Shown piece after piece: positions 23,439 through 64,000 of a stretch of 64,000 nucleotides of DNA. The DNA comes from Candidatus Woesearchaeota archaeon CG_4_10_14_0_2_um_filter_33_13 (GTDB lineage: Archaea; Nanobdellota; Nanobdellia; Woesearchaeales; GW2011-AR9). The translations under genes and the position numbers were made by a program. How positions within the stretch are numbered: the first letter of the stretch is position 1; each line of letters starts with the position of its first letter. The notes under the pieces were generated by a model. It made no database searches, was not told where the DNA came from, and saw only the letters and a list, made by a program, of their open reading frames with translations. Location of the stretch: the NCBI GenBank assembly GCA_002792115.1, contig PFNQ01000013.1, positions 7,236 to 71,235 of the forward strand. Reading direction: 5' to 3'.

Positions 23439-23498
23439 ATGATACTTGAAGCAGGTGTTCGCCGATAAGTTTTAATATTGGTTAAATTTAAATCACTT

Positions 23499-23987
23499 AT
23501 GGCTGTTTGTGAAATGTGTGGAAAGGATGCGTATTTATCTAGTGTAAACGTTGAAGGGGTAGAACTAAAAGTTTGCCCTAATTGTAGTAAGTATGGTACC
23601 AAAAACCCTTCCCTTGAGCGTAGATTTAACTCGCGAGACCGATTTAAACAAGATAAGTCTTCAAATCGGCAAGAAGTTGAATGGAAGATCATTGAAAACT
23701 TCTCTATTTTACTTAAGAAAGCGAGAGATGAGAAACATTTTACTCAAGAACAATTTGCAAAGTTTATCAATGAACGGGAAAGCGTATTGCAAAAATGGGA
23801 GAATGGCGATCTTAAACCTAGAATTGATGTAGCAAGGAAACTAGAACAAATTTTAAATCTGAACTTAGTTGTTAAGGACAACAAAGACACTAGTGAAGGT
23901 GATGAAGACTTAACCTCAAATCAAAAGAATAAAAAGGCTGCAGAAGAGTTCACGTTAGGAGACTTTATCAAAATTCGTAAAAAGTAA
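23499..23987 (+). CDS. mbf1: Archaeal multiprotein-bridging factor 1 (zinc ribbon + HTH)
   Basis: MAVCEMCGKDAY..VCPNCSKYG zinc ribbon followed by an HTH (FTQEQFAKFINERESVLQKWENG). The track ORF begins at TTG 23478. ATG 23499 is preferred because a TATA-like box lies 21 nt upstream. Confidence 0.85.
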   Translation: MAVCEMCGKDAYLSSVNVEGVELKVCPNCSKYGTKNPSLERRFNSRDRFKQDKSSNRQEVEWKIIENFSILLKKARDEKHFTQEQFAKFINERESVLQKWENGDLKPRIDVARKLEQILNLNLVVKDNKDTSEGDEDLTSNQKNKKAAEEFTLGDFIKIRKK

Positions 23988-24022
23988 TTTTCTGAATAAT
24001 TAGTTGAGAATTATTCGTTTCT

Positions 24023-26309: not shown

Positions 26310-26312
26310 TAT

Positions 26313-27050: not shown

Positions 27051-28333
27051 TTTAGTTTTTTACCTCTAGCAAATTCAAATAGTGATAATAGTAATATCAC
27101 TCCTTTAAGCAAATAATAAAAAAAGAAATAGGGGATTAAAGGAATAAATCCAAACTTAGTCATTCTTTCATTAGCATTTTTATGGGCTAAATAAAAAAAA
27201 GATGCACCAACGACAAAAATAAAGATAATTAAAAAACTGCGCCTAAAATCCATCTGCAAGAAATTAATCAAGTTAAATTTGAAACTTAATGTTTTAAGAT
27301 AAGGTATTATGTTAAATTTTATTGCAATCAAATTCTTTACTCGATTAATCATTGGCAAGAAGATTAAATAAACCGCAATAGTTATCCCTGTTATTGCCAA
27401 TATGTATCCCGCAACATTCTTAATCATCTGCATCATGCCGAAATCACCGTACTTTTTATTGGCGATTAATTCCTTGTATTGGTTAACACAAATTATACTC
27501 CCCAAATACCATCTCCTTCTTTGTCGGTAAAAGGGTTTAACTTCTTTTGGTGCAGTAGTATGAACATAACCATCAAAACATTGCTTTATTTTGTAATGAT
27601 GTTTTTGTAGTCTATAAGCAATCTCCTGATCTTCAGTTATGCTTTTAACATCAAATCCTCCTAATTCTCGGATGATCTTTGTTCTGTATAATGAGAATGG
27701 GCCTGGTGCCACATATAAAGAATCTAATCTGCTAGAAAGTCTTGCAATCAAGATAATTACTAAGTACTCTAACCACTGCACACGTTGTAGTAAATTCTTT
27801 GGTTTGTCAACTTTCATTGCGGGGGTAACAATAGCTAATTTGGGATCATTTTCTTGATCATAGATATTTAACATTTTTCTTAATGTCTGTGGATCTACAA
27901 AAGAATCGGCGTCCAGACAAGCAAAAAAATCTCCCTTCGTTAATTCTAAGGCCTTGTTCATAGATGCAGCCTTTCCTATGTTTTTGTGAGAGATTAACTG
28001 AAAATGTTTTTTATTTTGAATGTATTCCGCGATTATTTTTTTTGTATCGTCCTTAGAACCATCATCAATAACAATAACCTCTAATTTATCTTTTGGGTAT
28101 TCTATTTCATTGATTGATTGTAGTGTTCTCAGTATTGTTTTCTCTTCATTGTACGCAGGGACAAGAATAGAGACAAATGGAAATTTGTTTATTTGAGTGG
28201 AAGATTTTTCTTTTTTGAAAAATTCTCGATTATCCAGATAAACCAATAATAAGAATATTGAAAAGTACAATGATATAGCATACACAATCCATAATAGCAT
28301 ATTTACAAATATATTCATCAGTTTGTACTCCAA
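27044..28333 (-). CDS. Processive family-2 glycosyltransferase (membrane-integrated beta-glycan synthase; PgaC/NodC/cellulose-synthase-like)
   Basis: VPAYNEE, IDDGSKDDT, LDADSF, ITEDQE and the RQRRRW (QxxRW) motif. TM segments lie on both sides of the catalytic domain. Confidence 0.8.
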   Translation of the reverse strand: MEYKLMNIFVNMLLWIVYAISLYFSIFLLLVYLDNREFFKKEKSSTQINKFPFVSILVPAYNEEKTILRTLQSINEIEYPKDKLEVIVIDDGSKDDTKKIIAEYIQNKKHFQLISHKNIGKAASMNKALELTKGDFFACLDADSFVDPQTLRKMLNIYDQENDPKLAIVTPAMKVDKPKNLLQRVQWLEYLVIILIARLSSRLDSLYVAPGPFSLYRTKIIRELGGFDVKSITEDQEIAYRLQKHHYKIKQCFDGYVHTTAPKEVKPFYRQRRRWYLGSIICVNQYKELIANKKYGDFGMMQMIKNVAGYILAITGITIAVYLIFLPMINRVKNLIAIKFNIIPYLKTLSFKFNLINFLQMDFRRSFLIIFIFVVGASFFYLAHKNANERMTKFGFIPLIPYFFFYYLLKGVILLLSLFEFARGKKLKW

Positions 28334-28344
28334 AAGTTTTAAGC

Positions 28345-29751
28345 TTAGTCAGCTTTCCCAAACACCCACACCTCAGAATCTTCGTTGGAATGGACTAATT
28401 TAAATCTTTCGTTTTTAAGTAAGAAAAGCAGACCTTGTTCTTTGGGCAAGATTTCTTTCATATATTTGTTAACATATATAATAGAAATGTTGTGTTCTTC
28501 AAGTATTGGAAAAAGTTCGGTAATATACAATGATGCTAATGCTTTATACGTTAGATCTAAGGAAGAAGAATCTTTTTGTTTAAACAACGTTTCCCTTCCA
28601 GAAAAATAATTGATAATAAATGTATTCTCCGGCAAAGATAAGACCTTGCCTTCTTGAGGTATGTTTTGCTGAACCCAATACAAAGATTCTATGTCTCCAG
28701 CAGTTGGTCCATTTTCTTTGACTCTATCTAAATATGTTATTGTGGAGAAAAGCAGACCTAACACTAATAACAAAAACGTGAACTTTTTAAGAGAAATTAA
28801 GTTCCAATCTCGTTGAAATAGTTTTATAATTCCTGTGGCTGCAAAGAAAGAAGTTAACAGGCTTAAATGAAAAATTGCTTGGCTGTTTAACAAATATGCT
28901 CCCAAGGCGAGAGGTAAGAAAAGGTAGAAAATGTAAAAATTTTTCTTCTTCCAAGTTGTGGTTAAACCAATTAACGCTAAGGCTAAGGTAAATATTTTTA
29001 TGCCACTAACACTACCAAAGTCAGATATTAAACTGGCAATCTTCATCTGAAAGTTGAAAGGACCTAGAATGAATGGAATCTTTAAAACCAAATAATTAAA
29101 TAAAGCAATTATTGTAATTGAAGAGATAATCACATAGCCCTGCAAACTAAAATCTTTTTTTATCAAATATAAGTAGCAAGCTAAAATCAGAATCATAAAT
29201 ATGCTACTATATAGGTCAAAAAAAGTTGCCAAAAGAAAAGGAATTATTGATAAATGGTGTTGCCAATTTTCCTTTTGGTAAAAGTAAAATCCTAATAATA
29301 CAAGAGTAATGTAAAAGGAATATGCTGATAATGTACTAAATGTGTAAATAAATGTTGGAGATAGTGATACCATTAACAAAAAGAAGAAAATAACTTTATC
29401 TGAGATAGTTGTTTTTTCAGTTATTTTGAAGAAAAGCCATAATGAAACGATGGCTAGTCCTAATGGCAGTAATATTAACAAGCTCGTGGAAAATAATTCT
29501 GTCGCCAACTGTAACGGCAGATAATAAAATGTGTTAATGTCCCAAGATTGTGCCTTTAAGAGATGGTAATAACTTTCTTCTCCCATCAATATTGGTTTGC
29601 CCAATGAATGATTATACAGTGAAGGAAGTAACAAGACTACTAAAAATAAACATATGAAAAATGTTCTTTGGTTTTTTAGAAAAAAATTGAATATTTTATT
29701 GTTACTGCTAATAATGGTTTGTTCAATTTTAGTATCTTCGGTTTGACTCAT
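28345..29751 (-). CDS. Polytopic membrane protein, GT-C/STT3-like architecture without WWDYG
   Basis: 468 aa. The first loop MGEESYYHLLK resembles the STT3 EL1 motif. There are about 11 TM segments and a C-terminal soluble domain of about 130 aa (VLSLPENTFIINYFSGRE). Confidence 0.5.
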   Translation of the reverse strand: MSQTEDTKIEQTIISSNNKIFNFFLKNQRTFFICLFLVVLLLPSLYNHSLGKPILMGEESYYHLLKAQSWDINTFYYLPLQLATELFSTSLLILLPLGLAIVSLWLFFKITEKTTISDKVIFFFLLMVSLSPTFIYTFSTLSAYSFYITLVLLGFYFYQKENWQHHLSIIPFLLATFFDLYSSIFMILILACYLYLIKKDFSLQGYVIISSITIIALFNYLVLKIPFILGPFNFQMKIASLISDFGSVSGIKIFTLALALIGLTTTWKKKNFYIFYLFLPLALGAYLLNSQAIFHLSLLTSFFAATGIIKLFQRDWNLISLKKFTFLLLVLGLLFSTITYLDRVKENGPTAGDIESLYWVQQNIPQEGKVLSLPENTFIINYFSGRETLFKQKDSSSLDLTYKALASLYITELFPILEEHNISIIYVNKYMKEILPKEQGLLFLLKNERFKLVHSNEDSEVWVFGKAD

Positions 29752-29752
29752 T

Positions 29753-31243
29753 TTATTTTCCGATCAATTTACATTTTATTAAATAAATTTTTGTTTCTTG
29801 ATTATAAATCAATTCAAAACAATTCTTATCTAAGTAAGGTAATTCTTCAATTCCATACCTCTGTTTTGATTTTGAGGTTATTACAATATAATTAATTCCA
29901 TACGCATCGTAAATGCTTAGGGCCTGTGTTTGGAATTTAGCAGTAAACAGAGCGTTCAAATTATCAAATCTTTGATTTACTTTTTTTATTAAATTAAACT
30001 GGTCATCCATCAAATTTTTTCTGTTTCCATAATAGCTTACCAAGCTGCCCTCTCTAAGATTAGATGCCACCACGCTTTTTTCAGGAGTATTTTGCTTTAA
30101 CCAGACAAAACTATTTACTTGTTCTGTTGTTGGAGTATCTTGATCAAGAGAAAAACTTAATGCTGGGGGAACAATTGTCAAAAGTAATATGATTGTTAAA
30201 ATTAAAGTTATCTTTTTAGTGTAATTGTAGAATTTTGTTTTTTTAATATAATCTGTAAGGTCAACATAAAATACTGAAAACAATATTGCTAAGATTATGG
30301 CAAAAAAACTTAATGATAATTTGAATTCTATTAGCTTTAACCATGATAATATCGTTGTTGAAATGACAAAACTAATCAATAAAAATGCCTTTTGATTTTT
30401 AAGATTAAACAAAGAATTATAGACCACATATATTCCTGTAACAAAGGGAATTATACCAACTAAAACTATTGCCTGTGCTAATGATAATTGTGGATAGTAT
30501 TGAGCTAGAATCTGTTGTGGGATGTTTTGCCAAATAAAGTTTATCCCTTCTGTCAATAATGTCTGTTTGTAAAATAGAAATTGCGTCCAAAGGTAAAGGA
30601 AAAAAGAGAAGATAATGACTTCTGTTTCAGCCCGGTTTATTCTTTTCTTTTCAATTGCTAACAAAACCAAATAGATTAGGTATCCTCCTAAAATTAAGAT
30701 TGTCCCAGAGCTGGTTAAGGAAAGGCAAAACATGGAAAAGATGTACAAATACAAGTAAAATTCTTCTTTAATATTTAAGAAGGCATAGATTGAAAGAAAC
30801 AGAAGCGGCAAAAATAGTGTTTGTGGCGTAAATGAATCTGTTGAGTATAATATTGGTAGGAATCCAGCTATTACGGCCGATAATATTGATGCTTGCTGGT
30901 TATCTGTTAATTTCTTGCTTATCAAATATACTAATGGAACAATTAAAGCGATTAACAAATTTGGTAAAATTTTGGCAACTAGTTCTAAAGGAAGGATTAG
31001 AGCAAAAAATGCTGCAAGATAGTGAAATAATGGTAGAAATACATTAGTTCTTCCTCCATAAGATAGAGGGTCATTGTATAAAGGCAATCCTGTTGAAGAA
31101 ATATGTTCCACCTGTCTAAGATGAAAGTAAGAATCGTATGTTAAGTTTGGCATAAAAAAAGCAAGGACTAATCTTATCGTTAAAGTTAGCATAAATATTG
31201 CCAATAACCAGTATTTGGTATTTTTACCCATAAACATTAACAA
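29753..31243 (-). CDS. Polytopic membrane protein, GT-C/STT3-like architecture without WWDYG
   Basis: 496 aa. The first loop is NLTYDSYFHLRQ. There are about 12 TM segments and a C-terminal soluble domain (VVASNLREGSLVSYYGNRKNLMDD). Several Met codons occur near the start (MLMFMGKN), so the start is uncertain. Confidence 0.5.
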   Translation of the reverse strand: MLMFMGKNTKYWLLAIFMLTLTIRLVLAFFMPNLTYDSYFHLRQVEHISSTGLPLYNDPLSYGGRTNVFLPLFHYLAAFFALILPLELVAKILPNLLIALIVPLVYLISKKLTDNQQASILSAVIAGFLPILYSTDSFTPQTLFLPLLFLSIYAFLNIKEEFYLYLYIFSMFCLSLTSSGTILILGGYLIYLVLLAIEKKRINRAETEVIIFSFFLYLWTQFLFYKQTLLTEGINFIWQNIPQQILAQYYPQLSLAQAIVLVGIIPFVTGIYVVYNSLFNLKNQKAFLLISFVISTTILSWLKLIEFKLSLSFFAIILAILFSVFYVDLTDYIKKTKFYNYTKKITLILTIILLLTIVPPALSFSLDQDTPTTEQVNSFVWLKQNTPEKSVVASNLREGSLVSYYGNRKNLMDDQFNLIKKVNQRFDNLNALFTAKFQTQALSIYDAYGINYIVITSKSKQRYGIEELPYLDKNCFELIYNQETKIYLIKCKLIGK

Positions 31244-38774: not shown

Positions 38775-41700
38775 TTAACGTCTTTTTCTTTTTAAGGAAA
38801 CAATCAGGCCCATCAACACAGCAATAAATACTAATGCTACCATTATTGTTAATAATGATGTGTATGCAGTAGTATCCCTAAAAGAAGCTATTGTTTTCTG
38901 GCTTTGCACCTTCCTTACATCTAACTCATTTTGCAACTGCAAAGCTAACTGATCTTTGTTAACATATTGGTTAACCGCTTGTGTGGTTGAACTTTGTGCG
39001 TAACAATCTGTTAACTCTAATGTTACATCAGTACTATCTTCCAATATGTCATTATCCCTGTAAACCTTTACTGTAAGTGGATATGATCCCGCTTTAGCAT
39101 CTTCCAAATTAAGATTGAACGTGGCTTTGTAATCGTTGTCGCCACTGGAGTACTTTTCCAAGTCTATAGCAGTTTTACTCAAACTTAAGTCTAAAGCAGA
39201 GTTTTCTACAACAATCTTAACATCATCTTCATTACTCTTTCCAATATTCTCAACCATTACTTGCATAGTGGTTTGTCTTAAACATTGTAAAGTGCTAGAG
39301 GACAAGGAAGCAGAGTTGATGATAACTTGGTGTGTCTCTAAATCTACATCTACAGTTTTAATTTCTGTTGTAGTATGTGTAGACCCATCATCTGCTTCTC
39401 CTTCTATAGTTAGTTCTAATGTGTAAGTATCTTCATCAATGGTTTCTCCTTTAAGGTCAAAATCAACTGTAAAGGTTTCACTGTCTCCATCTCTAATATC
39501 ATTTTCATCAGATTCTTCTTCAAGGTCTTCTCCGTCAACATCTAGAATCTTAACCATCACAAACACATTATTAATGTCTTCACTATACTCATTGTTAACT
39601 TTAATTTCTATCTCATTTAGGTCTTGCAATGAAAGTTTTCCAGAGGATTTGCCATTAATCTTGATGTTATCAACTGTTAAGTAACTTTTTGGACTTAAGT
39701 AAATATCTTGCTCACTTGAATCCTCGTTGCTAGTAACATTTATTCTTCCAATCTGATGTTGTCCAGAATCTTCTCCTTCAGGAACGTAAAAGTTAAAGGT
39801 TAAGGAAAATTGTTGTCCTGCACTCAAACTTACTGGAACGCTTCCAGAAAAATTTGCTTTGTACTTGCTATTAATATCAAGTAGTTCTACTGATAATCCT
39901 GTTAATGATTGGTAAGTTCCAGTATTCTTAATAGTAACTTGAACACTTCCACTTTTTCCTTTATCAACGTTGCTTATAACGATCGGCGATATATCTATTG
40001 TAGCAGGTTGGTCTTCTACAACAAGATATGTAGAAAAACCTGTTACTGTAAAGATTATTTGTCCATTACTGTTATTGGTTATAACACAAATGGATTCTGG
40101 ACAAGTACTAAATTCGCTAGCATCATTATCAAACCCTTCTGCACGAAGAATCCTCGGGTTAGTAAATGATTTTTTTATAGTAATTGTTGCTGGAACATTT
40201 AATTCTGGTGCAGCATTATCACTAGTGTCGACTGAAACTTTATTAACATTAACCACAATAACTTCATCTATATTCAAGATTCCCGTCAAATCTAGATTGC
40301 CGTCAAAAACAATCTTTGCAAAGTTATTCTCAATTGTGAACTCATCTACACTTGCAGGATCTCTTATCTTACCATCAAAACTACCATTCCAATAACCTTC
40401 TGGAATTAATCCAGATTCTGAAACCGGTTCATCAGTGACGATATAAGTCCAAACTTGGGTATACTCTCCATTTATTTCCGCGTAAACCTCAAATTCACCA
40501 ACTTGATCAAATGGCAAGGGGTAATTTACTCCTTGGTAAACAGCTTCATCATTTACATACCACATTACTCTTTGATCAAAACCATCCTCTGCTAAAGTGA
40601 CACTTAATTCATCATCTGGTTGTCCTAACCCTATAATCCAGGTGTCTTCTTCTGGAGCATATGATAATAAACAATTATTTCTTTTTACTGTTGTTGACAA
40701 CACATTACTATATGTGGAATCGTCTCTGTACAACCCTTTAACATAAATAGTGTTATCTCCTTCACTTAAATCTTCAGTTTTTATCCATATTTTTATTAGT
40801 GCAGCAGTTGCTGAATCTATGGCTGGAACTTCTTTAACAATCTCTAAATCTCCTGATTGAATCAGCAATTTAAGATCGTCCTCTGTGTTTTTGCCAAGAT
40901 TGGTATACTCAATATTTAACCAAGCCCCTCCCCGACAAGTTAATTCTGATTGTCCTAAAGTTACGGCATTAATGATAATATCTGCGGCATCTTTGCTAAC
41001 TTCTAAATTAAAATTAAATAAATCCTTTCTCAGAATGGATGGATTTTGATAATCCTTACCAGTTATGATCAAATCAACGTTAAACACCTGCTCTACTGCT
41101 ACTAATGGTACATCAAAATCGATTGAAATAGTTTTTGTTTCTCCTGGATTTAAATTTGTGTTAAATTCATTTTCAACAACTGCACCATTTACATCCAATT
41201 TGTAAGCCAGTCCAGTTAACTTATAATTTAGGTGATTATTAACTTCAACACTAAGAGTTACATGGTCCAGTGGTTTTAACTCTTGGGCTAAATCTCCTGA
41301 ATTGACAGTTTCTCCATTTACTTTAAGAGATTTGATCTCCAGTGCGGGGGTAACAGATATATTAACTGTTTTTTGTACAACACCACCATAACTATCATCA
41401 ACAGAGATGGTGCAGCTTGCGTCCTTTTTCCAGTTTACACCTAACTTTAATTGTAATTGTTCATTTGTAATAACCTTACACAAAACTCCGCCCTTTTGGG
41501 AAATTTTTGTATAAATCAAATCGTCTCCGTCAGCATCAGAGAATAAGTCAGTAAGTTCTAGGATTATTAATTCATTATTTACTTCTGCTAAGTTCTGGGA
41601 TAGAATTGATCCAACAGGTTTTCTATTATTTGCAGAATTTTTTGTCGCTTCATTAGATATAATCCATTCTATATTGCCGTCATGGATACGAGAAATAAGT

Positions 41701-42119
41701 TCGTCTGTTAATAGAGTATCTGTGTGTGTTGCAATGGCTGCATGAGTGTAATCTCCGTAAGTAAGGGCGTCAATGAAACCAGACGGAGAATTCTTAAGAA
41801 CAATTTTGTCCCCAGAATCAGTTAGTTTATTATTTAATTCTAAAATTAGGTGACTATGTCCATTAATTTTTCCAGTAATGACGGTATCTCCTAAGTTGGT
41901 TCTAATAAATCCAGTACCTAAGGCATCATAATCAACAGAATCTACTCCGGTATTGTATAACTCGATCCATTCATTTCCTGTGCTTGGGTCAACCATTATT
42001 TCGTTAATGACCACGTCAGTATCCATACCTAATGCTGCTTTGGTTGTTAATATCAAAGCAACAATTACAAAAAGAATTGTTAGAATTTTAGTTTGTTTCA
42101 TTTTGTTTTTATACCTCAA
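38775..42119 (-). CDS. Large secreted surface protein with an N-terminal lamin-tail (LTD) domain, repeated beta-sandwich modules and a C-terminal TM anchor
   Basis: 1114 aa with a signal peptide (KILTILFVIVALILTTKAALG). The LTD motif is VVINEIMVDPSTGNEWIELYN. The C-terminus is LLTIMVALVFIAVLMGLIVSLKRKRR. Confidence 0.75.
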   Translation of the reverse strand: MRYKNKMKQTKILTILFVIVALILTTKAALGMDTDVVINEIMVDPSTGNEWIELYNTGVDSVDYDALGTGFIRTNLGDTVITGKINGHSHLILELNNKLTDSGDKIVLKNSPSGFIDALTYGDYTHAAIATHTDTLLTDELISRIHDGNIEWIISNEATKNSANNRKPVGSILSQNLAEVNNELIILELTDLFSDADGDDLIYTKISQKGGVLCKVITNEQLQLKLGVNWKKDASCTISVDDSYGGVVQKTVNISVTPALEIKSLKVNGETVNSGDLAQELKPLDHVTLSVEVNNHLNYKLTGLAYKLDVNGAVVENEFNTNLNPGETKTISIDFDVPLVAVEQVFNVDLIITGKDYQNPSILRKDLFNFNLEVSKDAADIIINAVTLGQSELTCRGGAWLNIEYTNLGKNTEDDLKLLIQSGDLEIVKEVPAIDSATAALIKIWIKTEDLSEGDNTIYVKGLYRDDSTYSNVLSTTVKRNNCLLSYAPEEDTWIIGLGQPDDELSVTLAEDGFDQRVMWYVNDEAVYQGVNYPLPFDQVGEFEVYAEINGEYTQVWTYIVTDEPVSESGLIPEGYWNGSFDGKIRDPASVDEFTIENNFAKIVFDGNLDLTGILNIDEVIVVNVNKVSVDTSDNAAPELNVPATITIKKSFTNPRILRAEGFDNDASEFSTCPESICVITNNSNGQIIFTVTGFSTYLVVEDQPATIDISPIVISNVDKGKSGSVQVTIKNTGTYQSLTGLSVELLDINSKYKANFSGSVPVSLSAGQQFSLTFNFYVPEGEDSGQHQIGRINVTSNEDSSEQDIYLSPKSYLTVDNIKINGKSSGKLSLQDLNEIEIKVNNEYSEDINNVFVMVKILDVDGEDLEEESDENDIRDGDSETFTVDFDLKGETIDEDTYTLELTIEGEADDGSTHTTTEIKTVDVDLETHQVIINSASLSSSTLQCLRQTTMQVMVENIGKSNEDDVKIVVENSALDLSLSKTAIDLEKYSSGDNDYKATFNLNLEDAKAGSYPLTVKVYRDNDILEDSTDVTLELTDCYAQSSTTQAVNQYVNKDQLALQLQNELDVRKVQSQKTIASFRDTTAYTSLLTIMVALVFIAVLMGLIVSLKRKRR

Positions 42120-42202: not shown

Positions 42203-43585
42203 TTATTTGAGTAACACCACCAAAAAGACAATAATCAATGCTACTACTAAAATAATTGCAATGATTATTGCTCCCACAAGGAAATCATTTGCGGAGTAAG
42301 AGTGTTCTGTGGTGGAAACAACAGTAGTTGAAGACGTTGGTTGATTACTCGTTGGGGTGTTTGTGTTACTTGCAGTAGTTTGATTCAACACTGTAACGAT
42401 AACTTCAGAGTCATCTGCAGTAGTTGGTGTGGTGGGGTTTATTGTTACTTGACATTTTCCAACATTTAAAGAAACTCTTTCATAATCAGCATTTTCATCT
42501 AAGTCAATGTAAGCGTTTATATCAAAATCGTATTTCCCCTCTTTAACTCCCACTAACGGAATGGTAACTGTTTTCTTCCAAGTGTTAACTTTATCACTAA
42601 ACTCGTTAATGACCAAGTTCTTAATGTTTTCATTAATTTTTAAAGCTTGGTTGTAAATAGCAACAGCAGCAGCTTTTTGATCATCAGTGCCATAGTTTGT
42701 TACTTCTACAGTTAAGAAAACTTCTTCATCACAAGTTGTAACTGTTTCAGGTTGAAATTCAGCTTTGACTATTCTTAAATCGTCTCTAACTCGATCGACT
42801 TCAATAGTTAAAGTCTTTTCAATCTTGTATTCTACATTTTTTTCATCTATTGCAACCAAAGTAATGTCTAATTCATACTTCCCTTCATCAACATCTTCAT
42901 CAGGTGTGAAAGAGATTTCAAATGAATCATCTGTATCTGCGTCTAAAGCATCTAAATCCCAAGAATCATCAATGTCCTGGCTCAGGTCATCATTATCATC
43001 AATAGTTAAAGTAATATCATCAAACGTTCCATATTTATATTTGTCATTAAATGAATTTGCGTATTTAAATGTGAATGTAATTTCTTCCCCAGCAAGAACT
43101 GTTTGATCTAAGTCCCAAGAACTTTCTTCATCATTACCATCAAACTTATCTGTTTCACTTCCATCTTCACTTTTGTAATCTACTTCTAATCTATCAAAGT
43201 CTAGCATCATGGCAGTGTTTTGTTCTAAACTAGCACTATCTGTATTGGCAGCATTACCTTTTTCTTCAACTTTTAAAGTCCCGATATTTTCAGTTCCTGC
43301 GTCTTTATCATGAGGAACCTTTATGGTATAAGAAACAGCCTGGGTGGAGTTGGCCGCAATAACAACTTCTTTTGTGTCTGCAACATATTTTGTGCTAGGT
43401 AAACCACTTGCTGAAACTACAATCGTTAAATTGCTTGCATCCGGATTGTTGACAGTAAAACTTGCTTGTCCTAAAACATAATCTTTATAATCACCATCAT
43501 CAAAATCCTGATAATCCACACTTAGATTAACTTTGTCTTCAACAATGTTCAAAGCAGAAACAACATTAACAACTAGTAAAAGCAT
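42203..43585 (-). CDS. Acidic secreted surface protein with a Thr/Ser/Pro/Asn-rich stalk and a C-terminal TM anchor
   Basis: 460 aa. The stalk is NPTTPTTADD..TNTPTSNQPTSSTTVVSTT, followed by the TM GAIIIAIILVVALIIVFLVVLLK. The N-terminus looks truncated (see finding). Confidence 0.7.
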   Translation of the reverse strand: MLLLVVNVVSALNIVEDKVNLSVDYQDFDDGDYKDYVLGQASFTVNNPDASNLTIVVSASGLPSTKYVADTKEVVIAANSTQAVSYTIKVPHDKDAGTENIGTLKVEEKGNAANTDSASLEQNTAMMLDFDRLEVDYKSEDGSETDKFDGNDEESSWDLDQTVLAGEEITFTFKYANSFNDKYKYGTFDDITLTIDDNDDLSQDIDDSWDLDALDADTDDSFEISFTPDEDVDEGKYELDITLVAIDEKNVEYKIEKTLTIEVDRVRDDLRIVKAEFQPETVTTCDEEVFLTVEVTNYGTDDQKAAAVAIYNQALKINENIKNLVINEFSDKVNTWKKTVTIPLVGVKEGKYDFDINAYIDLDENADYERVSLNVGKCQVTINPTTPTTADDSEVIVTVLNQTTASNTNTPTSNQPTSSTTVVSTTEHSYSANDFLVGAIIIAIILVVALIIVFLVVLLK

Positions 43586-56008: not shown

Positions 56009-56815
56009 ATGGAATCCACTTGGCAAATAACTCAAGAAACAAAAGTTTTACCGAAATTAAACAAACCCATTTTTATTGAAGGTTTACCTGGAATTGGAAA
56101 TGTTGGTAAGATTGCAGTTGATTATCTTGTTGAAGGGTTAAAAGCAAAGAGAATATATTCTTTTTTTTCTTACAAATTTCCCCATTCTGTTTTTGTTTCA
56201 GAAAAAAATTTAATAGAAATGCCCCGGATTGAAATTTTTTACAAAAAATCTACCGGCAAGGGAAGAGACTTTTTATTTTTAGTCGGGGACATTCAACCAA
56301 TTGATGAAGACAGTTGTTACTCTTTTTGTAATGAAATTTTAACTATCATAAAACAGTACAATTGTTCGGAGGTAATAACTACCGGCGGGATTGGTTTACA
56401 AACTATTCCAGATACCCCCAAAATATATTGTACTAGTAACGATGCTGAACTCTTAAAACAATATCACCAAAAAAGCAAGATTCTAGAAAAAGAAATATTT
56501 GGTGTAGTTGGTCCAATTGTTGGTGTTTCCGGAGTATTGTTGGGATTTGGTCAAAGGCAAGGAGTTAAAGGTGTTGCTTTACTAGCAGAGACTTATGGTC
56601 ATCCATTATATTTGGGAATAAAAGGGGCTAAAGAAATATTAAAAATCATTGATAAAAGATTTTCTTTAAAGATTAATCTGCAAAAAGTTGATAAAGATAT
56701 TCTTAGTTTGGAAAAAGAATTGTTAAAGAAGACTGCTGAGCTTTCCTCTGAGATATTGCATTCAACATCAGCTGGTGCAAAAGCAAGAGATAAAGATGTT
56801 AATTATATTGGTTAA
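56009..56815 (+). CDS. PAC2-family protein (proteasome-assembly-chaperone-like)
   Basis: IEGLPGIGNVGKIAVDYL is a typical PAC2 N-terminal motif. 268 aa. Confidence 0.7.
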   Translation: MESTWQITQETKVLPKLNKPIFIEGLPGIGNVGKIAVDYLVEGLKAKRIYSFFSYKFPHSVFVSEKNLIEMPRIEIFYKKSTGKGRDFLFLVGDIQPIDEDSCYSFCNEILTIIKQYNCSEVITTGGIGLQTIPDTPKIYCTSNDAELLKQYHQKSKILEKEIFGVVGPIVGVSGVLLGFGQRQGVKGVALLAETYGHPLYLGIKGAKEILKIIDKRFSLKINLQKVDKDILSLEKELLKKTAELSSEILHSTSAGAKARDKDVNYIG

Positions 56816-56924: not shown

Positions 56925-56932
56925 TTTATAAA
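56925..56932 (+). promoter_or_regulatory. TATA box (TTTATAAA) for the 666-aa / giant-ORF unit
   Basis: 23 nt upstream of ATG 56955. Confidence 0.5.
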
Positions 56933-56954
56933 TAAATATAATATACTTTAATCA

Positions 56955-58955
56955 ATGCCAAAAAAGAGGTTGGGATGTGGTTTATTTAGTTTTCTTCCTA
57001 TTAGCTCAGGCTCTGGGCGAAGCTCTAAAAGAGGGCAAATCACTGTTTTTATTATTCTGGGCATTTTAATGTTGTTGGCATTGGTTTTAGTTATCGCTTT
57101 AAAATCAGAAATTTTTGCTTTTAAAACGGATGAAATCGCTCCTACAGAAAAAGGCAAAGTTGAAAATTATATTGTTGCGTGTATGGATAGACTTGGAGAA
57201 GAAGCTTTATTTAAAATTGGTCTTCAAAGCGGATACATTGAAGTACCTACCCAAATTGCTAAAGATAATCAACAAAGTTTGAGACTTTCTCCTATGAATG
57301 TAGTTCCCTATTGGGCGGTTGGGCCAAATATCTTTGTTCCCTCATTACAAGAGATAAAAGAACGGATTGATCTTTACATGGAAGAAAATATGCGCGATTG
57401 TCTTTTCTCTACTCAAGCTTTTACAGAACAATACGACCTAATCGAGAAAAGTGAAATTACTGCAGATACAAATATTGCTGAGAATCAAGTTATCTTTAAT
57501 ATTCATTGGGACATTGAAGTTAATAATAAAGCAGGAGAAGTTGTTAGTGAAGTTATCAACCATATTACTGAGTCTCCTGTGAAATTAAAGAAAGTTTATA
57601 CTATGGCAGTAAAGATTCTTGAGAATGAGATGCAATCATTAAAGGTGGAAGATATTACTCAAGACCTTATTGCTTTAGAACATCCTAAAGTGCCGGTAGC
57701 TGGAATTGAATTAAGATGTAGTAAAAAAACATGGGATGTTAAAGAAGCGGAGAGTACTTTGCTAAAGATGTTACGTATCAACATCCGAGAATTAAAAATT
57801 AAAGGGACCGATTTTTTAGAGTTTCCTGAAGAATTACCTTACTATGATAATCATTATGTTTGGGACATTGGAGAAGATATTTCTGAAAGAAAAGTTAGTG
57901 TAATGTTTAACTTTGATGAGACTTATCCACATGTTTTTGCAGTTACTCCTTTATCCGGCACAAAAATGGCTAGTTCTCAATTAGGTGGTACTGATCAAAT
58001 TTCTTTCTTATGTATTCAAACGTGGAAATTTACTTACGATTTGGTTTACCCGGTACTGGTAAGAGTGAGGGATGAAACAACCAATTATGAATTTAATATG
58101 GCCTTTACAGTTCATTTAATTCAGAACACTCCTAACAAAGGCGATCCTGTCGCTAGAGCTTCGTTGCAATTTCCTACAATAAATGCTGATGGGTATTGTA
58201 CTTCTGCTAATGTTCCAATGAGTATAAAAACTTATGAACTAGTAGAAAATGGTGAGGGAGTAAGTTATAACGAAGATTTGGGAGATGTTAACCTCAGCTT
58301 TACTTGTTTAAGATACAAATGTGACTTGGGCCAAAGTAAATACGACTACGCAGGTTTGGGTTTCTCTGGAATAAGTTTGAATGTGCCGTATTGTGTTGGA
58401 GGAATTTTAAGGGGAACTAAACCAGGATATAAAGAATCTTGGCAGAGAGTAGTTACAACGGCCGGCAAGGAAGCCGAGTTAAGCTTGACTCCAGTTATTA
58501 ATATTCCTCTCAATAAAATTAAGGTGGTTAAACATGATTTTACTGAAGTTAATGGAGTTAAAAATATTGGTCCTGCTCAAGAAGGTGCAGTTGAGGAGAC
58601 TACATTAATCAAACTTAAGTTTATTAAATCAAATCTTACCGAAACAAATTTAGAACATGAGGCTACTGTTGCAGTATCAAAACAGATGGACAAAAAAATA
58701 TTTGAAGAAGAGAAATTAGAATTGTTGGCTAAAGCCGATTTTACCTATTATTTGGAAGTGATGGTTTTCAGAGAAGAAGAGTTTATTGGAGGATATAAAG
58801 GTGAAGTAACCTTACCTTGGAGCCAATTAAAAGATGCTAGTCAATTAATCTTCCACATTTTATCCAGTAAAACAACTAATGAGGAAGAAATGTTTGCATT
58901 TATGACAAACATTGAAGAGCTGAGCAAAGAAATACCTGCTTTAGAAATAAAATAA
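56955..58955 (+). CDS. Large exported protein of unknown function with a class III (prepilin-like) signal motif
   Basis: 666 aa. N-terminus ..SSKRGQITVFIILGILMLLALVLVIAL. 9 Cys. TTTATAAA lies 23 nt upstream of the ATG. Confidence 0.7.
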   Translation: MPKKRLGCGLFSFLPISSGSGRSSKRGQITVFIILGILMLLALVLVIALKSEIFAFKTDEIAPTEKGKVENYIVACMDRLGEEALFKIGLQSGYIEVPTQIAKDNQQSLRLSPMNVVPYWAVGPNIFVPSLQEIKERIDLYMEENMRDCLFSTQAFTEQYDLIEKSEITADTNIAENQVIFNIHWDIEVNNKAGEVVSEVINHITESPVKLKKVYTMAVKILENEMQSLKVEDITQDLIALEHPKVPVAGIELRCSKKTWDVKEAESTLLKMLRINIRELKIKGTDFLEFPEELPYYDNHYVWDIGEDISERKVSVMFNFDETYPHVFAVTPLSGTKMASSQLGGTDQISFLCIQTWKFTYDLVYPVLVRVRDETTNYEFNMAFTVHLIQNTPNKGDPVARASLQFPTINADGYCTSANVPMSIKTYELVENGEGVSYNEDLGDVNLSFTCLRYKCDLGQSKYDYAGLGFSGISLNVPYCVGGILRGTKPGYKESWQRVVTTAGKEAELSLTPVINIPLNKIKVVKHDFTEVNGVKNIGPAQEGAVEETTLIKLKFIKSNLTETNLEHEATVAVSKQMDKKIFEEEKLELLAKADFTYYLEVMVFREEEFIGGYKGEVTLPWSQLKDASQLIFHILSSKTTNEEEMFAFMTNIEELSKEIPALEIK

Positions 58956-58986
58956 TTTCAGTTTAAGAAATGATGTATCATTAAAC

Positions 58987-61900
58987 ATGGTCAATATGAA
59001 AAGACATTGGAAAAGTAAGTGGTTATTAACCATCATTGTATTGGTTATAATGATTAACCTACCAATAATCAGTGCTTTAGAACTCTCAAACGTTCGAGCA
59101 GAAGACATCACTGATAATAGTGCCAATGTTAAATGGGACACCGATGAACCGGCAGATAGTTTTGTAAGTTATGGAAATGATAAAACTAATTTACAAAAAG
59201 TTGGTGATGCTAAACAGTTAACAGAACACGGATTCTATTTAACTGGATTAAATGCAGAACAAGAATATTTTTACAAGGTAGAAAGTAATGATGTTGTTGA
59301 CGATAATTCTGGGTCTCTTTATTCTTTTAAGACTTTAGCCCCAGATAAAACTCCTCCTGCGTTACAGGTAGATCTTCCTGAAATGATGGCGGGAACAAGG
59401 ATGGATGTTATCGGATGGACCGAGCCAGGAGCGGAAGTTTCCTTATTCTTGGATGGGTCTTTAGCCGGAAACACCAGAGCAGAGTTGGAAAATGCTAGCA
59501 ATGTGATTACCTCGAACTTTACGGAAGAAATTATTGAAGAACAGCCAATTGAAGATGTTACAATTGAGGAAATGGTAGATGAAGAAGTTACAATTAATAA
59601 TAGCACTGAACAGATTGAACAGATTTTGGAAGAGATTAATATTACTTCTGATCCTACGTCTGAATCTACCTCTGAGTCATTAACAAATGAAACTAACATT
59701 AACATTACAGAAAATGCTATTACCGGCCAAGCTTTTTTTGGTAATAATGATAATGACAAAACTGCCGAGAAACCGCAAGGAAAATTTACTTTTAATAACA
59801 TTTTAATAAACAAGGACGATTATACTAATATTACTATAGAATCAATTGATGCTTCTGGAAACAAAGCCACTTTCTCTGGTCAAGTTTTTTCAGATAATAG
59901 CAAACCAAAAATTGAAATTGGTAATTACTCTAATGTTATAGACACTAACTCTATTGATTTAGCAGTAATTTTTTCTGAAGAAGTTGAATTTGAAATTTTT
60001 GCTGATAATCGTTCTGTAAAGAAAGGTCAGGGAACAAGTATGAATGAAAGCATTTCTTTACAAGAAGGAGAAAATAAAATTAAGATTATAGCCAAAGATG
60101 TTGCAGGTTGGGAAACCACAAAAGAAATTGTTGTTTTATCTGACACTCAACCTCCAACAGTTAAGATAGAGATTGAAAAGGGAAATGAATATTATCAAGG
60201 AAGAGCTGTTTCTAACATTCATGGAGAGACTGAACCAGGAGCAACTTTGTATCTTTATGTTTACCGTCCACAAGCATATGAATTTAGTCCTGATTTCAAA
60301 CGGCCATGGACAAGAGTAACGGCAGATCAAAACGGAACCTTTACCTTTTCTGATGTTAACTTTGAAGGTGAACCAATAAGTTTAGAAGATTTTGCACCAA
60401 AACAAGTTCCATCAGGATTAGAACAATATTCTATTTTCCCAGTAGAATTAGTTAATGAACAGCAAAGGCACACTTATTACTTATTTGTTATTGCTGAAGA
60501 TCAGACTGGTAAAACTTCTTCTGCTCAAGCAACCATCACTATTAATAGTTGTTATACTGGAGATTGGGCTTTTGATGTTAGATCTGTTCCAGAATTTCAA
60601 AGACCAATGCGTCTTGATCCTGGACTGTTAGATGAAGGAAGAGAACAAGTTACTGCCGTTTTCAATTTAAGTTATCGTGGCAGTGCGTCGCCTAAAATTA
60701 ACGTTTTAAATCCGCAAGACAAAGAAGAGGCATTTCAAATTGTTGATGTTGTTTTTGATCGTGCCTGCACACAAAGTATGATGGATGATGAACAATTCCG
60801 GCTAGGATGTAGTATCTTGCCGCCTAGTCCAAATAAAATCAAGAATGGCGATGGGACCGCTTGGTATTTAACTTACAAGCTAAGTAGTTCTCAAAAGTTA
60901 AGCGAAGCAAAAGACGATTTTTGGGATGAATTTCAAAAAAGACAATTAATTTTTCCAATGAAGTTGAGGATACAATATCAAGAAAGACAACCGGGGGGAG
61001 AGTTTGGTCCAGTAAAAACTCAAACTAGTTGCTATGATCTTGGTTATTTTGTGGATATTCCCATTGATAGTAAGGATATGATTCCTGATTGGTTAGCAGA
61101 TGAAGGGATGGATGCAATTGAAGGGACATTAAATGTTATTGATACAATCTTGCCTTATTTAGAAAAAGCAATTTTAGTAACTGGTTATGCTTGCATTTTC
61201 TCTTTCTTAGGAAGAATGACGATGCGCTGGATTAGAATTTTTGTTGCTAAGATGGAAGTCTATTCTTCTAAGATGAAGAAAGAAGGGGAGAAATGTCCTT
61301 CAAATCAAAACGGTTATTATTTGAAAAGTACCATTGATCATTGGAAAGAGATTGAAAATATTTTTGGAAAAACCCCAGGAGAAGACAACCAACCGAAAGG
61401 AGATTGGAAGAATCAGAAACCGCTTGATGATCTTTGTCCAAGTACAGCTAGTATGTGGAAAGTTGAAGCAGCATTAGATCAGGCTTATCGTTGGACTTGT
61501 GATCGAGTATATTGTCGGGCAGTTCCTGCTGGATGGACAGCTAGTAAGACTAAAGATCAAGTTGAAACGGTTATTTTAGCACAGAATCAATGTACTGTTA
61601 GTAGTAGAGGAATTCCTTTGCAAGAGGTTGAGAATTGTCAAGAATTATTAACACAAGATGTTACCAATCCTTCTCAAAAAGCACAAGCTTTAGTTAAGAA
61701 AGGAGCCTTTACTTGTTATCGTTACAACGGCCGTTTATATCAAGTAACTTCAGAACAAACTCAAAGTGATGTTGGGGAAGTTGTTACATTAGAGATGATC
61801 CATGACTTTGGTTTAACGATTAATCAAGGATCACAATTTATTGGTTATAGTAATCTAATTGCTTACAAACCCCCTAGGTCTGATCAATTTATTGTTGGAC

Positions 61901-64000
61901 AAGATCAAAGTTGTAAGAATGCTTGTAAAAATCCACGCAAACCAGGTTACAAACCAGACTTGGAAGGAAGCATAACTAACCTTAAATCAGAAACTGCTAC
62001 AAGCCCTGAACATAATGGCTGTTATCAAGAAGTGTACCAAGATGGTTCTTTTAGTGGAGCAACAACGTTAGTTGGATCAAAAGGACCAATGACTGGCAAT
62101 AGATTTTCTGCTGGTTATACTAAAGATTGCTTTGTTGATTTCAATAAAGGTTCTGGTTTATCCACCCAAACAACTACTAACGAAAGTTGTAGTGGAACAC
62201 CAGATTGTGTAAGTGGTAATAGTGGACAATGTATTAATAACAAATGTGTTTATCAAACAACTAGCGACATTGATGTAATTGGACCTAACTCTGCCACGGG
62301 CACAACAGGTTTATTACAATGTGTATGTACTGTTGATGAGAAACAAGAACAAAAATATGGGGCGAGAACAGCAGCAAAGGAAGTTGAAGAATCTGACACT
62401 TCTGAAGATTGGGTTTATCGTCAATCTTCAATCTTTAAAGATACTCGAGGCATGTACGGAACATATTATCCCGAATGGCGTTATTATGGTGGAAGAGATT
62501 TATCCTCTGCTTTTGGTGCAGACTATCTCTTAGATTATTTTGGTACGGAAAAAACAGTTCATGAAGTTAATCCCCATACCCAATTCCTTGGAATTTACCA
62601 AACCATTTGTTTATCTGGAATTAGAGCACATCTAGTGATGTTAAAAAGTATACTTGAAGGATTGAGGGGATGTATTGAACAAGCTAAGTACACGGGATTA
62701 ACTGATGCTGGAACTTGTAAAACTATTTTCTCACAACATGTATGTGGGTTAATCTATAAAGCAATTGCTTATTTCTTTACCAGTTGTAGTCCACATTCCT
62801 TTGCAGATGAAACCAAAACAGAAGGTGGAGTAGTAGAAGGTATTGGTGAAGTCTTTAGTGCAGGGTTTGGCTCTATTGGAGAAGCAATGCAATCTTCAAT
62901 AGATGATATCAAATCTGATTATGGAAATGCTAAATTAAATGAATACTTTTCAACTGGAGCAAGAGGCTTTACAGAATCATTATGTATGGCTGCTTTTGGT
63001 TATGATTGGCCGTTAGGTATGGACTTTATTCTAGATTCAGCATACTCTTATCCTATGAAATCAACAGTAATGGTTTTCCCAGCAGAAAGAGAACTTGCTA
63101 CTTTTAATCCAACTAAAGGGACTGCTGTTTATAATTATAATCTTGGCGCGATGGTCTTGCCTGGTTGTCAGATTAAAAGTGCAGACGTTTATTTGAAATG
63201 TGTCGGCCCAGAAGATCAAGGTCATCCAGGGTTACAATGTGGTAACCAGGGTTGTGATTGTATACACGCAACAGAATCATCTTCATTGGAAGGAGAAAAA
63301 ATACGTTATTTGGATAATGGACGACAGTTTAACATAAAGCAAGGTTCTTTTATTGACTTAAAGATTCCTTCTCCACAAAAGATTGACTCTCAATATAGGT
63401 ATGATCATGTTGTAGTTAAACTTGTGTTGGACTCTTCTGAATCTCCAGACAATTGTTTTGATGAAGGTTATAAAGACGGATTATTTTATTTCCCAATAAT
63501 TGATATATCTCCTCCTGCAGAATTCATTTGTCAAGTGCAACCAACTACAGGAAGATATTATTGTCCAGAAGTTGTTAAGATGTTTGGTGGTGGTGGCGGA
63601 GCGTATTTAGAAGATCCTTACATTAGTTGTTATGACAAAGATTCAGAATCTTACGTCTCGTGTAAAACTCCCAATTTGTTTGTTAAAGGAGACCAGATTA
63701 AAGTTAAAACTCATGTAGTTACGGATGGAGAAGCTTATTGTTTAAGGATGAGTGCTACCGGATTAGGTCCAGATAAACAAGAATTAGGCATCAAGCAACT
63801 GCCAAAGAATCTTCCTGGTCCGTATGGTATTGAAACTAATCTCGGAACTGTTTCGCCAGAATTATTTTCCGGAGCATATAATTCTATGACCCTTACTTCA
63901 GATAGTGACCCACAATGTAGCAGGCAAGTACAATACAATAATTTTCCGCAAGGACAAATAGCTCAAAAGTCTTACACCTTTACCTATACTGTAACTAATA
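58987..64000 (+). CDS. Giant surface protein, 5' part only (at least 1,671 codons, open to the window end)
   Basis: I translated it codon by codon from ATG 58987 to 64000 and found no stop. It is not in the supplied track. It has a signal/TM (KWLLTIIVLVIMINLPIISA) and an FN3-like domain (AEDITDNSANVKWDTDEPADSFVSYG..YFYKVES). Ig-like modules follow (TPP..TEPGA), then a hydrophobic segment near codon 726 and a region with about 40 Cys. Confidence 0.85.
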   Translation, partial: MVNMKRHWKSKWLLTIIVLVIMINLPIISALELSNVRAEDITDNSANVKWDTDEPADSFVSYGNDKTNLQKVGDAKQLTEHGFYLTGLNAEQEYFYKVESNDVVDDNSGSLYSFKTLAPDKTPPALQVDLPEMMAGTRMDVIGWTEPGAEVSLFLDGSLAGNTRAELENASNVITSNFTEEIIEEQPIEDVTIEEMVDEEVTINNSTEQIEQILEEINITSDPTSESTSESLTNETNINITENAITGQAFFGNNDNDKTAEKPQGKFTFNNILINKDDYTNITIESIDASGNKATFSGQVFSDNSKPKIEIGNYSNVIDTNSIDLAVIFSEEVEFEIFADNRSVKKGQGTSMNESISLQEGENKIKIIAKDVAGWETTKEIVVLSDTQPPTVKIEIEKGNEYYQGRAVSNIHGETEPGATLYLYVYRPQAYEFSPDFKRPWTRVTADQNGTFTFSDVNFEGEPISLEDFAPKQVPSGLEQYSIFPVELVNEQQRHTYYLFVIAEDQTGKTSSAQATITINSCYTGDWAFDVRSVPEFQRPMRLDPGLLDEGREQVTAVFNLSYRGSASPKINVLNPQDKEEAFQIVDVVFDRACTQSMMDDEQFRLGCSILPPSPNKIKNGDGTAWYLTYKLSSSQKLSEAKDDFWDEFQKRQLIFPMKLRIQYQERQPGGEFGPVKTQTSCYDLGYFVDIPIDSKDMIPDWLADEGMDAIEGTLNVIDTILPYLEKAILVTGYACIFSFLGRMTMRWIRIFVAKMEVYSSKMKKEGEKCPSNQNGYYLKSTIDHWKEIENIFGKTPGEDNQPKGDWKNQKPLDDLCPSTASMWKVEAALDQAYRWTCDRVYCRAVPAGWTASKTKDQVETVILAQNQCTVSSRGIPLQEVENCQELLTQDVTNPSQKAQALVKKGAFTCYRYNGRLYQVTSEQTQSDVGEVVTLEMIHDFGLTINQGSQFIGYSNLIAYKPPRSDQFIVGQDQSCKNACKNPRKPGYKPDLEGSITNLKSETATSPEHNGCYQEVYQDGSFSGATTLVGSKGPMTGNRFSAGYTKDCFVDFNKGSGLSTQTTTNESCSGTPDCVSGNSGQCINNKCVYQTTSDIDVIGPNSATGTTGLLQCVCTVDEKQEQKYGARTAAKEVEESDTSEDWVYRQSSIFKDTRGMYGTYYPEWRYYGGRDLSSAFGADYLLDYFGTEKTVHEVNPHTQFLGIYQTICLSGIRAHLVMLKSILEGLRGCIEQAKYTGLTDAGTCKTIFSQHVCGLIYKAIAYFFTSCSPHSFADETKTEGGVVEGIGEVFSAGFGSIGEAMQSSIDDIKSDYGNAKLNEYFSTGARGFTESLCMAAFGYDWPLGMDFILDSAYSYPMKSTVMVFPAERELATFNPTKGTAVYNYNLGAMVLPGCQIKSADVYLKCVGPEDQGHPGLQCGNQGCDCIHATESSSLEGEKIRYLDNGRQFNIKQGSFIDLKIPSPQKIDSQYRYDHVVVKLVLDSSESPDNCFDEGYKDGLFYFPIIDISPPAEFICQVQPTTGRYYCPEVVKMFGGGGGAYLEDPYISCYDKDSESYVSCKTPNLFVKGDQIKVKTHVVTDGEAYCLRMSATGLGPDKQELGIKQLPKNLPGPYGIETNLGTVSPELFSGAYNSMTLTSDSDPQCSRQVQYNNFPQGQIAQKSYTFTYTVTN

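Follow-up and report, generated by a model that had tools for sequence, protein, structure and literature searches.

In the EppA-processed pilin-like proteins of Methanococcus maripaludis (Epd pilus, 'system 1'), the cleavage site has a basic residue at position −2, glycine at −1 and glutamine at +1, and a hydrophobic helix comes next. This glutamine has been reported to be essential for processing by EppA, the pilin-specific peptidase of Methanococcus (PMC4390842), and system 1 filaments have been reported in some DPANN archaea (bioRxiv 10.64898/2026.04.22.720090). Here we describe gene A, which shares this N-terminal layout and lies on a 64,000-nucleotide stretch (hereafter the window) of contig PFNQ01000013.1, positions 7,236 to 71,235, from Candidatus Woesearchaeota archaeon CG_4_10_14_0_2_um_filter_33_13. 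Whereas Epd pilins are small and encoded in loci with an ATPase, a platform protein and EppA, A is 666 residues long and has no filament genes within 10 kb; it also lacks a QxSxE-type motif, having Q-x-T-x-F instead, and does not match PF04021. On balance, and with moderate confidence, we favour the reading in which A is a surface protein that undergoes prepilin-like processing, with its mature helix serving to anchor or dock it, and in which, together with a small third protein, C, it holds the giant anchorless partner B encoded directly downstream; contact with bacterial hosts is plausible.

Large cargo proteins with class III (prepilin-type) signals are already known. Large modular minor pilins and pilus adhesins, such as PilB of Streptococcus sanguinis (PMC8179133) and the DUF2341/PilY-like proteins of archaeal pilus loci (PMC4858521), carry a class III N-terminus on a large ectodomain, as A appears to do, and it has been proposed that they are displayed on filaments or act as adhesins (PMC8179133, PMC4858521). 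However, A has no sequence or domain kinship with them (no DUF2341, vWA or any other Pfam domain), does not lie in a pilus locus and has a conserved giant partner. The sugar-binding proteins of Sulfolobus, substrates of the bindosome, are large non-pilin class III-signal proteins that are processed by PibD and encoded apart from the assembly genes (PMC3047682; bioRxiv 10.64898/2026.04.22.720090), and they offer a precedent for a large surface protein of this putative type away from assembly genes. A differs from them in lineage and in ectodomain, which contains no substrate-binding-protein domain. The combination of a solute-binding-protein domain with an adjacent ABC transporter is likewise not seen, as A has no Pfam domain and its neighbours are a PAC2 gene upstream and B downstream.

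SlaB, the surface-layer (S-layer) anchor of Sulfolobus (PDB 8qox_B), is one of the top structural matches to A and resembles the A-B pair in combining a tandem beta-sandwich stalk with a much larger anchorless partner, but its anchor is C-terminal, it contains a coiled coil, its TM-score to A is about 0.15, and there is no sequence similarity. One genomic study proposes that lineage-specific families of Woese- and Pacearchaeota, together with large murein-lytic proteins, act on bacterial hosts of these episymbionts (PMC8204110). Those families come from the same lineage and the same 'hypothetical, possibly symbiosis-related' class as A, and the bacterial-wall idea is the same as for the A operon where its fourth gene is an SLT or amidase enzyme; in the available text of that study there is no description of A, B, C, their pilin-like N-termini or an operon link to lytic enzymes. 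More widely, we found no description of the A family, the tripartite operon or the murein-lytic link in the searchable literature. As abundant, uncultured archaea, Woesearchaeota and their DPANN relatives are presumed to live attached to other cells, and their attachment or host-access machinery has remained undefined.

A class III-like N-terminus is conserved across the A family

Gene A (56955..58955, + strand; open reading frame (ORF) with ATG start) encodes 666 residues of an uncharacterised Woesearchaeota/Nanoarchaeota family. The sequence-only reading had given the same length, and the N-terminus MPKKRLGCGLFSFLPISSGSGRSSKRGQITVFIILGILMLLALVLVIAL and the motif FTCLRYKCDLG that it quoted are both present in the translation. 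The family is large and lineage-specific: 238 full-length homologues share 48-100% identity, every one labelled hypothetical and every one from a source named Woesearchaeota, Nanoarchaeota or Nanoarchaeia. When a profile built from 33 members was run against 1.84 billion proteins, 6,027 representative clusters matched at E <= 1e-3, 789 of them at E <= 1e-30, and the named members sampled among these matches were again Woesearchaeota or Nanoarchaeia. With more than 6,000 protein clusters in the wider family, and relatives encoded on 388 stretches of species-representative genomes, the operon headed by A ranks among the most conserved lineage-specific ones encountered in this analysis. There were zero matches to A in Pfam and NCBIfam, and a sequence search of all PDB chains with A as a profile also returned 0.

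The most conserved part of the family is the N-terminus. Sequence comparison delimits a putative class III leader (residues 1-27, MPKKRLGCGLFSFLPISSGSGRSSKRG; 56955..57035, + strand) with predicted cleavage after G27, and behind it the conserved hydrophobic helix of the putative mature protein (residues 28-49, QITVFIILGILMLLALVLVIAL; 57036..57101, + strand), the single predicted transmembrane segment. The site reads K25-R26-G27↓Q28 in the context SKRG↓QITVFIILG, the arrow marking the predicted cleavage. We anchored the comparison on this motif in 114 of 120 close homologues and added 114 full-length representatives of the distant members. Among the close homologues, position −1 is G (72) or A (42) and no other residue, and −2 is K or R in 105 of 114, giving a K-K/R basic pair ahead of the cleavage residue. 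Q at +1, T at +3, F at +5 and G at +9 each occur in 114/114, with V or I at +2 and I-I at +6/+7; about 12 further hydrophobic residues follow +9 and then K/R-x-E. The distant representatives have K/R at −2 in 109/114, G, A or S at −1 (78, 29 and 7), Q at +1 in 113, T at +3 in 103 and F at +5 in 107. The consensus [KR]-[G/A/S]↓Q-[VI]-T-x-F-I-I-x-G is essentially invariant across both sets, and in an alignment of 33 homologues Q28, T30, F32, I33, I34 and G36 do not vary at all.

The segment upstream of the site behaves quite differently. In the close subfamily it measures 19-94 residues and is kept only in its first five, M-x-K-K-R; in 90 of the 114 distant members it is 3-9 residues long (mode 5), as in MKKRG↓QITVFIIIG. 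The leader alone is thus free in length (3-94 residues), which fits a peptide that is removed. In addition, the same N-terminus stands on paralogues with other ectodomains, of 257, 262, 341, 708-763 and 1,071 residues. Since the boundary residue is limited to G, A or S, the leader varies and the N-terminus is reused on different ectodomains, a processing or targeting signal accounts for the data better than an ordinary anchor. The earlier assignment of a class III-like N-terminus, made from one protein, is borne out by this invariance in 114 of 120 close and 114 distant homologues around a freely variable leader. Of all window ORFs of at least 50 residues, A is the only one that combines a match to a FlaFind-type pattern with a single hydrophobic helix; the other three pattern matches fall in one short ORF lacking annotation and within multi-pass membrane proteins. 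As judged from sequence, the N-terminus of A would be organised like the archaeal class III signals described in the literature, with cleavage at G27↓Q28 as its predicted consequence.

In the window subfamily, the leader has two basic patches, M-x-K-K-R right at the beginning and S-K-K/R-G where cleavage is predicted, and looks as if some 15-20 residues had been inserted into an ancestral MKKRG↓Q leader. A mis-called start was considered as the source of the long leader and ruled out; the M-x-K-K-R start is taken as genuine because it is conserved at the protein level and because, in relatives, a TATA box stands at a fixed −30 from that ATG.

Members of other sizes occur in several relatives, at L001 5417-8632, L027 182-1207 and L085 2191-2979 and 5358-6131 (1,071, 341, 262 and 257 residues). 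Their leaders are short, e.g., MYKRG↓Q or MKKRG↓Q, and in L085 each short relative of A precedes a protein of about 770 residues with no Pfam match. One divergent clade has a paralogous module directly upstream of the true A gene (L065 2153-9827, L066 1707-10007, L077 530-8900, L080 1845-9981 and L086 10001-18359), consisting of an A-like protein (708-763 residues, KKRG↓QITVFII), a signal-peptide protein of about 1,040 residues, a protein of 489-800 residues and a membrane protein of about 260 residues, in that order; none of these proteins matches Pfam. Many metagenome-assembled genomes with the A operon have been deposited as 'uncultured Methanosarcinales archaeon' (records L006, L009, L012 and many more), which looks like taxonomic mislabelling in the source records, because the relatives nearest to them by protein A carry Woesearchaeota or Nanoarchaeota labels.

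A heads an operon with a giant cysteine-rich protein

A TATA box (TTTATAAA; 56925-56932, + strand) stands upstream of A, with its first base at −30 from the ATG. The sequence-only reading had noticed this box and placed it 23 nt from the ATG, a distance that needs a small correction, since the box ends 22 nt before the start codon. A TATA-like box starts at exactly −30 in 37 of 75 loci of relatives and falls within −24 to −40 in 59 of 75, compared to 3.9% at random positions and 0 of 60 loci upstream of B. The box before A and never before B indicates an operon headed by A, in which A is the first gene of a transcription unit under its own TATA promoter. With the first base of the box 30 nt before the ATG, a leaderless or near-leaderless mRNA is implied, and the A transcript is probably leaderless.

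The stop codon of A ends at 58955 and the ATG of the giant ORF lies at 58987, in keeping with the 31-nt gap described earlier. This spacer (58956..58986, + strand) contains no promoter box. The two ORFs had also been said to share a reading frame. They do not: 56955 mod 3 = 0 and 58987 mod 3 = 1, as a spacer of 31 nt does not preserve the frame. Read-through or fusion of A and B, which a shared frame would have implied, is ruled out by the different frames, the TAA stop and the gap. Spacing between A and B in relatives is mostly −4 to +35 nt, and gene overlaps of −4 nt are common.

Gene B (58987..64000, + strand, by translation) runs off the window, which holds its 5' 1,671 codons; the ORF is still open at base 64000, so that its full length exceeds this number. 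Because complete B proteins of relatives have 1,760-2,300 residues, only the last few hundred codons should lie outside. B begins with a Sec-type signal peptide (residues 1-30, ...PIISA↓LE), followed by an fn3/purple-acid-phosphatase-N-like domain (residues 34-116) and by Ig-like domains, with weak Pfam matches only (Pur_ac_phosph_N, fn3 and Glucodextran_B) and 0 matches in a sequence search of all PDB chains. From about residue 500, the core is highly conserved and cysteine-rich, with column identities of 0.6-0.79; 34 of its 40 cysteines are at least 90% conserved, and such conservation is remarkable for a surface protein. There are 13 N-glycosylation sequons, and no terminal membrane anchor was found. 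The label 'adhesin' that B had been given is a guess.

Residues of about 150-250 of B (59437..59736) form an acidic low-complexity insert, which varies and which most homologues lack (column identity 0-0.17). A 164-codon antisense ORF (59319..59813, − strand) overlaps this insert and is probably spurious.

A third gene and a variable secreted enzyme follow B in relatives

The pairing of A and B is kept in essentially every relative with enough downstream DNA. A complete B homologue follows A in 64 of the 74 loci with at least 1 kb of downstream sequence; in nine of the other 10, B runs off the end of the locus, and in one it is split. The split case is L086, in which B appears as genes of 1,101 and 905 codons. 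The sequence-only reading had proposed a two-gene surface module, and of this the A-B pair stands while the extent does not, as the module is larger: the order in relatives is A (about 660 residues), B, C (about 190 residues) and, usually, a variable secreted enzyme.

C (180-220 residues) follows B in 44 of 59 loci. In our genome it would lie beyond the window end, and it is present in the closest relative with sequence, L005, whose A protein is 67% identical. Its N-terminus reads M-N-K-K-G↓K-V-A-M-E-I-L, and in 95 evaluable homologues the leader has a mode of 5 residues, −1 is G (67), A (20) or S (8) and +5 is E (62) or Q (13). By this pattern, the C N-terminus carries the classical G↓xxxxE signature of type IV pilins.

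We surveyed the gene after C for Pfam domains in 34 loci. The domains found were SLT lytic transglycosylase (9 loci), GDSL lipase (Lipase_GDSL_2 in 7 and Lipase_GDSL in 5, which may overlap, hence up to 12), FGE-sulfatase-like (7), Amidase_2 (4), Peptidase_M15_4 (3), DUF218 (3), Glucosaminidase (2), Phage_lysozyme2 (2), Hydrolase_2 (2), polysaccharide deacetylase (Polysacc_deac_1; 2), exo/endonuclease-phosphatase (2) and Peptidase_M74 (1). In 3 of the 34 loci the next gene is enolase, so here the cluster ends after C. To our knowledge archaea have no murein, and since the operon is nonetheless tied to murein hydrolases, the enzymes after C would be tools against bacterial walls and a role at the wall of a bacterial host comes into view. 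The operon thus links two pilin-type N-termini and a giant, unusually conserved cysteine-rich surface protein with enzymes that degrade bacterial and not archaeal walls.

The predicted structure of A and two less likely readings, a major pilin and an S-layer stalk

In the AlphaFold model of A (mean predicted local distance difference test score (pLDDT) 78), residues 1-23 are disordered (pLDDT below 50), residues 25-59 form a long helix and a break follows at residues 60-64. The ectodomain (residues 50-666; 57102..58952, + strand) has an alpha/beta region (residues of about 65-400) with no structural match, and a beta-rich C-terminal half with tandem beta-sandwich domains of transthyretin/CnaB-like type (residues of about 410-640). 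As counted earlier, A has nine cysteines (residues 8, 76, 149, 255, 353, 415, 451, 456 and 480), of which eight are invariant among the 33 aligned homologues; together with the 34 conserved cysteines of B, these indicate an extracellular location. A is therefore predicted to consist of one N-terminal helix after basic residues and an ectodomain of about 600 residues that is disulfide-rich and ends in a beta-sandwich 'stalk'.

A class III-like N-terminus and a hydrophobic helix would also be present if A were itself a polymerising pilin, i.e., the major subunit of a type IV-like pilus. Known major type IV pilins pack tightly in a helical array, and a multi-domain ectodomain of 600 residues is incompatible with such packing. 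In a pilin proper, which is small, a single globular head packs on the C-terminal half of the N-terminal helix, and A fails this description: its helix breaks at residues 60-64 and does not pack onto a single globular head. With the ATPase and platform genes also absent from the locus, we consider this explanation very improbable.

Structure searches relate the stalk of A to the SdrD adhesin and to SlaB, with TM-scores of only 0.13-0.17, the values of generic beta-sandwich arrays. The likeness to SlaB nonetheless raises the alternative that A and B form a two-component Woesearchaeal S-layer or envelope, with A as the stalk, like SlaB, and B as the canopy, like SlaA, so that the class III-like signal would be a mere processing detail and the function would not be host interaction. 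B is indeed large, Sec-secreted, anchorless and rich in sequons, the module sits among housekeeping genes (PAC2, GatD, AdoHcyase and enolase), the window also carries an N-glycosylation gene island, and the 388 matching stretches make the module near-universal in the lineage. However, SlaB is anchored at its C-terminus and A at its N-terminus, and the TM-scores are low. S-layer proteins normally diverge fast, and the identities of A (48-68%) and the column identities of B (60-79%), with 34 conserved cysteines, are unusually high for such proteins. The operon tie to murein hydrolases is left unexplained as well. We regard an S-layer role as quite unlikely.

The machinery question and a plain signal anchor

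Several results weigh against prepilin-like processing and against the wider reading built on it. No pilus ATPase, platform protein or prepilin peptidase occurs among the window ORFs (20 large ORFs scanned against Pfam, all polytopic ORFs inspected), as the sequence-only reading had noted for the ATPase and peptidase, and the multi-pass membrane ORFs are a flippase, STT3, a UbiA-like protein, PMT_2-type glycosyltransferases, a GT2 protein and MgtC. Motif and Pfam searches of 1.41 Mb, made up of the window and 86 loci, revealed no A24 peptidase, FlaI/PilB-type ATPase (Walker motif) or polytopic FlaJ-type platform protein; the candidates turned out to encode VIT1, an ion channel or proteins of unknown identity. 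About 80 loci are free of type IV filament genes within 10 kb of the module. The FlaFind-type pattern that A satisfies (K/R at −2, G/A at −1 and a hydrophobic stretch of about 20 residues from +1) was re-implemented after the published rule and is not FlaFind itself, so that it carries no calibrated error rate. Curated hidden Markov models (HMMs) of class III and archaeal pilin N-termini in Pfam and NCBIfam do not match full-length A, which does not favour the class III assignment, and N-terminal fragments of A and C hit no class III or pilin model at E <= 10; the sub-threshold matches to PF13400 Tad (TadE/G-like), at E 0.028-0.13, came from three short-leader paralogues only. A leader of 27 residues is long for an archaeal class III signal, its conserved M-x-K-K-R start means that it is not wholly unconstrained, and helix conservation within a transmembrane segment can equally reflect helix-helix packing in a membrane complex. 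For C, the structural model has a disordered linker of about 25 residues between helix and beta-sandwich and a generic fold, and its top 60 fold matches in the PDB include no archaeal pilin or archaellin; as these matches are generic beta-sandwiches only, the idea that its fold makes C a pilin was set aside as unproven. Moreover, a host-wall function is speculative, being drawn only from gene adjacency with the fourth gene beyond the window, and one preprint describes type IV pilus components as missing in DPANN (10.1101/2020.05.14.094862).

On the other side, flaB/H/I/J/K genes, including flaK-type prepilin peptidase genes, have been reported in most Woesearchaeota metagenome-assembled genomes (PMC11606122; also PMC5994134), and some DPANN and Nanoarchaeota have been reported to possess systems 1 and 4A of the archaeal type IV filaments (bioRxiv 10.64898/2026.04.22.720090).

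Much of the above would be expected if A were a plain type II membrane protein with an uncleaved signal anchor, in which the conserved K-K-G-Q-V-T-I-F-I-I-L-G serves as a packing interface with C, B or another membrane partner and neither a prepilin peptidase nor filament machinery is involved. A has a single N-terminal transmembrane segment with basic residues on the cytoplasmic side, filament genes are absent nearby in about 80 loci, the class III HMMs are silent, the leader is long with a conserved start, and the flexible linker in C looks like a simple tether. What an uncleaved anchor leaves unexplained is the restriction to G, A or S before the helix, with K/R ahead and Q after, in more than 200 diverged members, the variation of the upstream segment over 3-94 residues while everything downstream is fixed, and the independent G↓xxxxE in C. 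Reuse of the N-terminus on paralogues with different ectodomains is, furthermore, what would be expected of a targeting or processing signal. We regard a plain anchor as a serious possibility, though a doubtful one. Should A nevertheless be such an anchor, the operon would still define a core envelope complex of an uncultured phylum.

Under the favoured reading of A as a prepilin-like processed surface protein, A would insert with its N-terminus inside and C-terminus outside. The mature Q-I-T-V-F-I-I-L-G helix would then keep A in the membrane or dock it, together with C, into a short stem resembling a type IV filament, and the A/C pair would hold and display the anchorless giant B. More speculatively, the A-B-C complex could serve to attach to the cell walls of bacterial hosts or to breach them, and it plausibly acts in contact with bacterial hosts. 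Physical association of A, B and C, a filament-like assembly and the host-wall role are steps that we infer. If this reading is correct, the operon supplies concrete candidates for archaeal contact with bacterial hosts and widens the range of large non-pilin cargoes on the archaeal class III signal route.

A bolder extension takes the A-B-C(-lytic enzyme) operon as a near-universal and so far unrecognised Woesearchaeal nanomachine, in which A and C, after processing by the archaeal prepilin peptidase, would form a short pseudopilus-like stem bearing a disulfide-locked B head of about 2,000 residues; together with co-encoded murein hydrolases, lipases and nucleases, this stem would attach to bacterial walls and breach them. 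We consider this unlikely as it stands. If true, it would explain in physical terms how DPANN archaea live as episymbionts on bacteria, which has long been sought, and the device would be an archaeal counterpart of type II secretion or of contact-dependent attack systems, encoded apart from the classical type IV filament loci.

Genomic neighbourhood and other features of the window

The window has a G+C content of about 32% and contains the archaeal markers GatD, a PAC2 proteasome-assembly chaperone and AglB/STT3 with a glycosylation gene island; a tRNA scan of the window found none. The PAC2 gene (56009..56815, + strand) lies just upstream of A, as it does in the distant relatives L001, L003 and L005, and AdoHcyase and GatD are located further upstream. 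Because these three genes precede A in the window and in relatives, the module appears to sit in a conserved housekeeping neighbourhood and not on a mobile island.

Positions 1..31243 form a large glycan-biosynthesis and N-glycosylation island with AglB/STT3 (20357..23260), several GT1/GT2/GT4 glycosyltransferases, a Wzx-like flippase (16866..18146), PMT_2-type enzymes, nucleotidyl transferases and a B12/radical-SAM enzyme. This island could glycosylate the surface proteins A and B. Three ORFs have no Pfam match: 42203..43585 (− strand, 460 residues, with a C-terminal transmembrane segment), 28345..29751 (− strand, 468 residues, with seven transmembrane segments, inside the glycosylation island) and 9198..10358 (+ strand, 386 residues).

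A further protein of 1,114 residues (38775..42119, − strand) has an N-terminal signal-like segment and a C-terminal transmembrane segment, and matches the Lamin Tail Domain, Nup98-type S59 autopeptidase, CARDB and bacterial Ig domain families of Pfam. It is another large surface protein, and its autoproteolytic domain is unusual in an archaeon.

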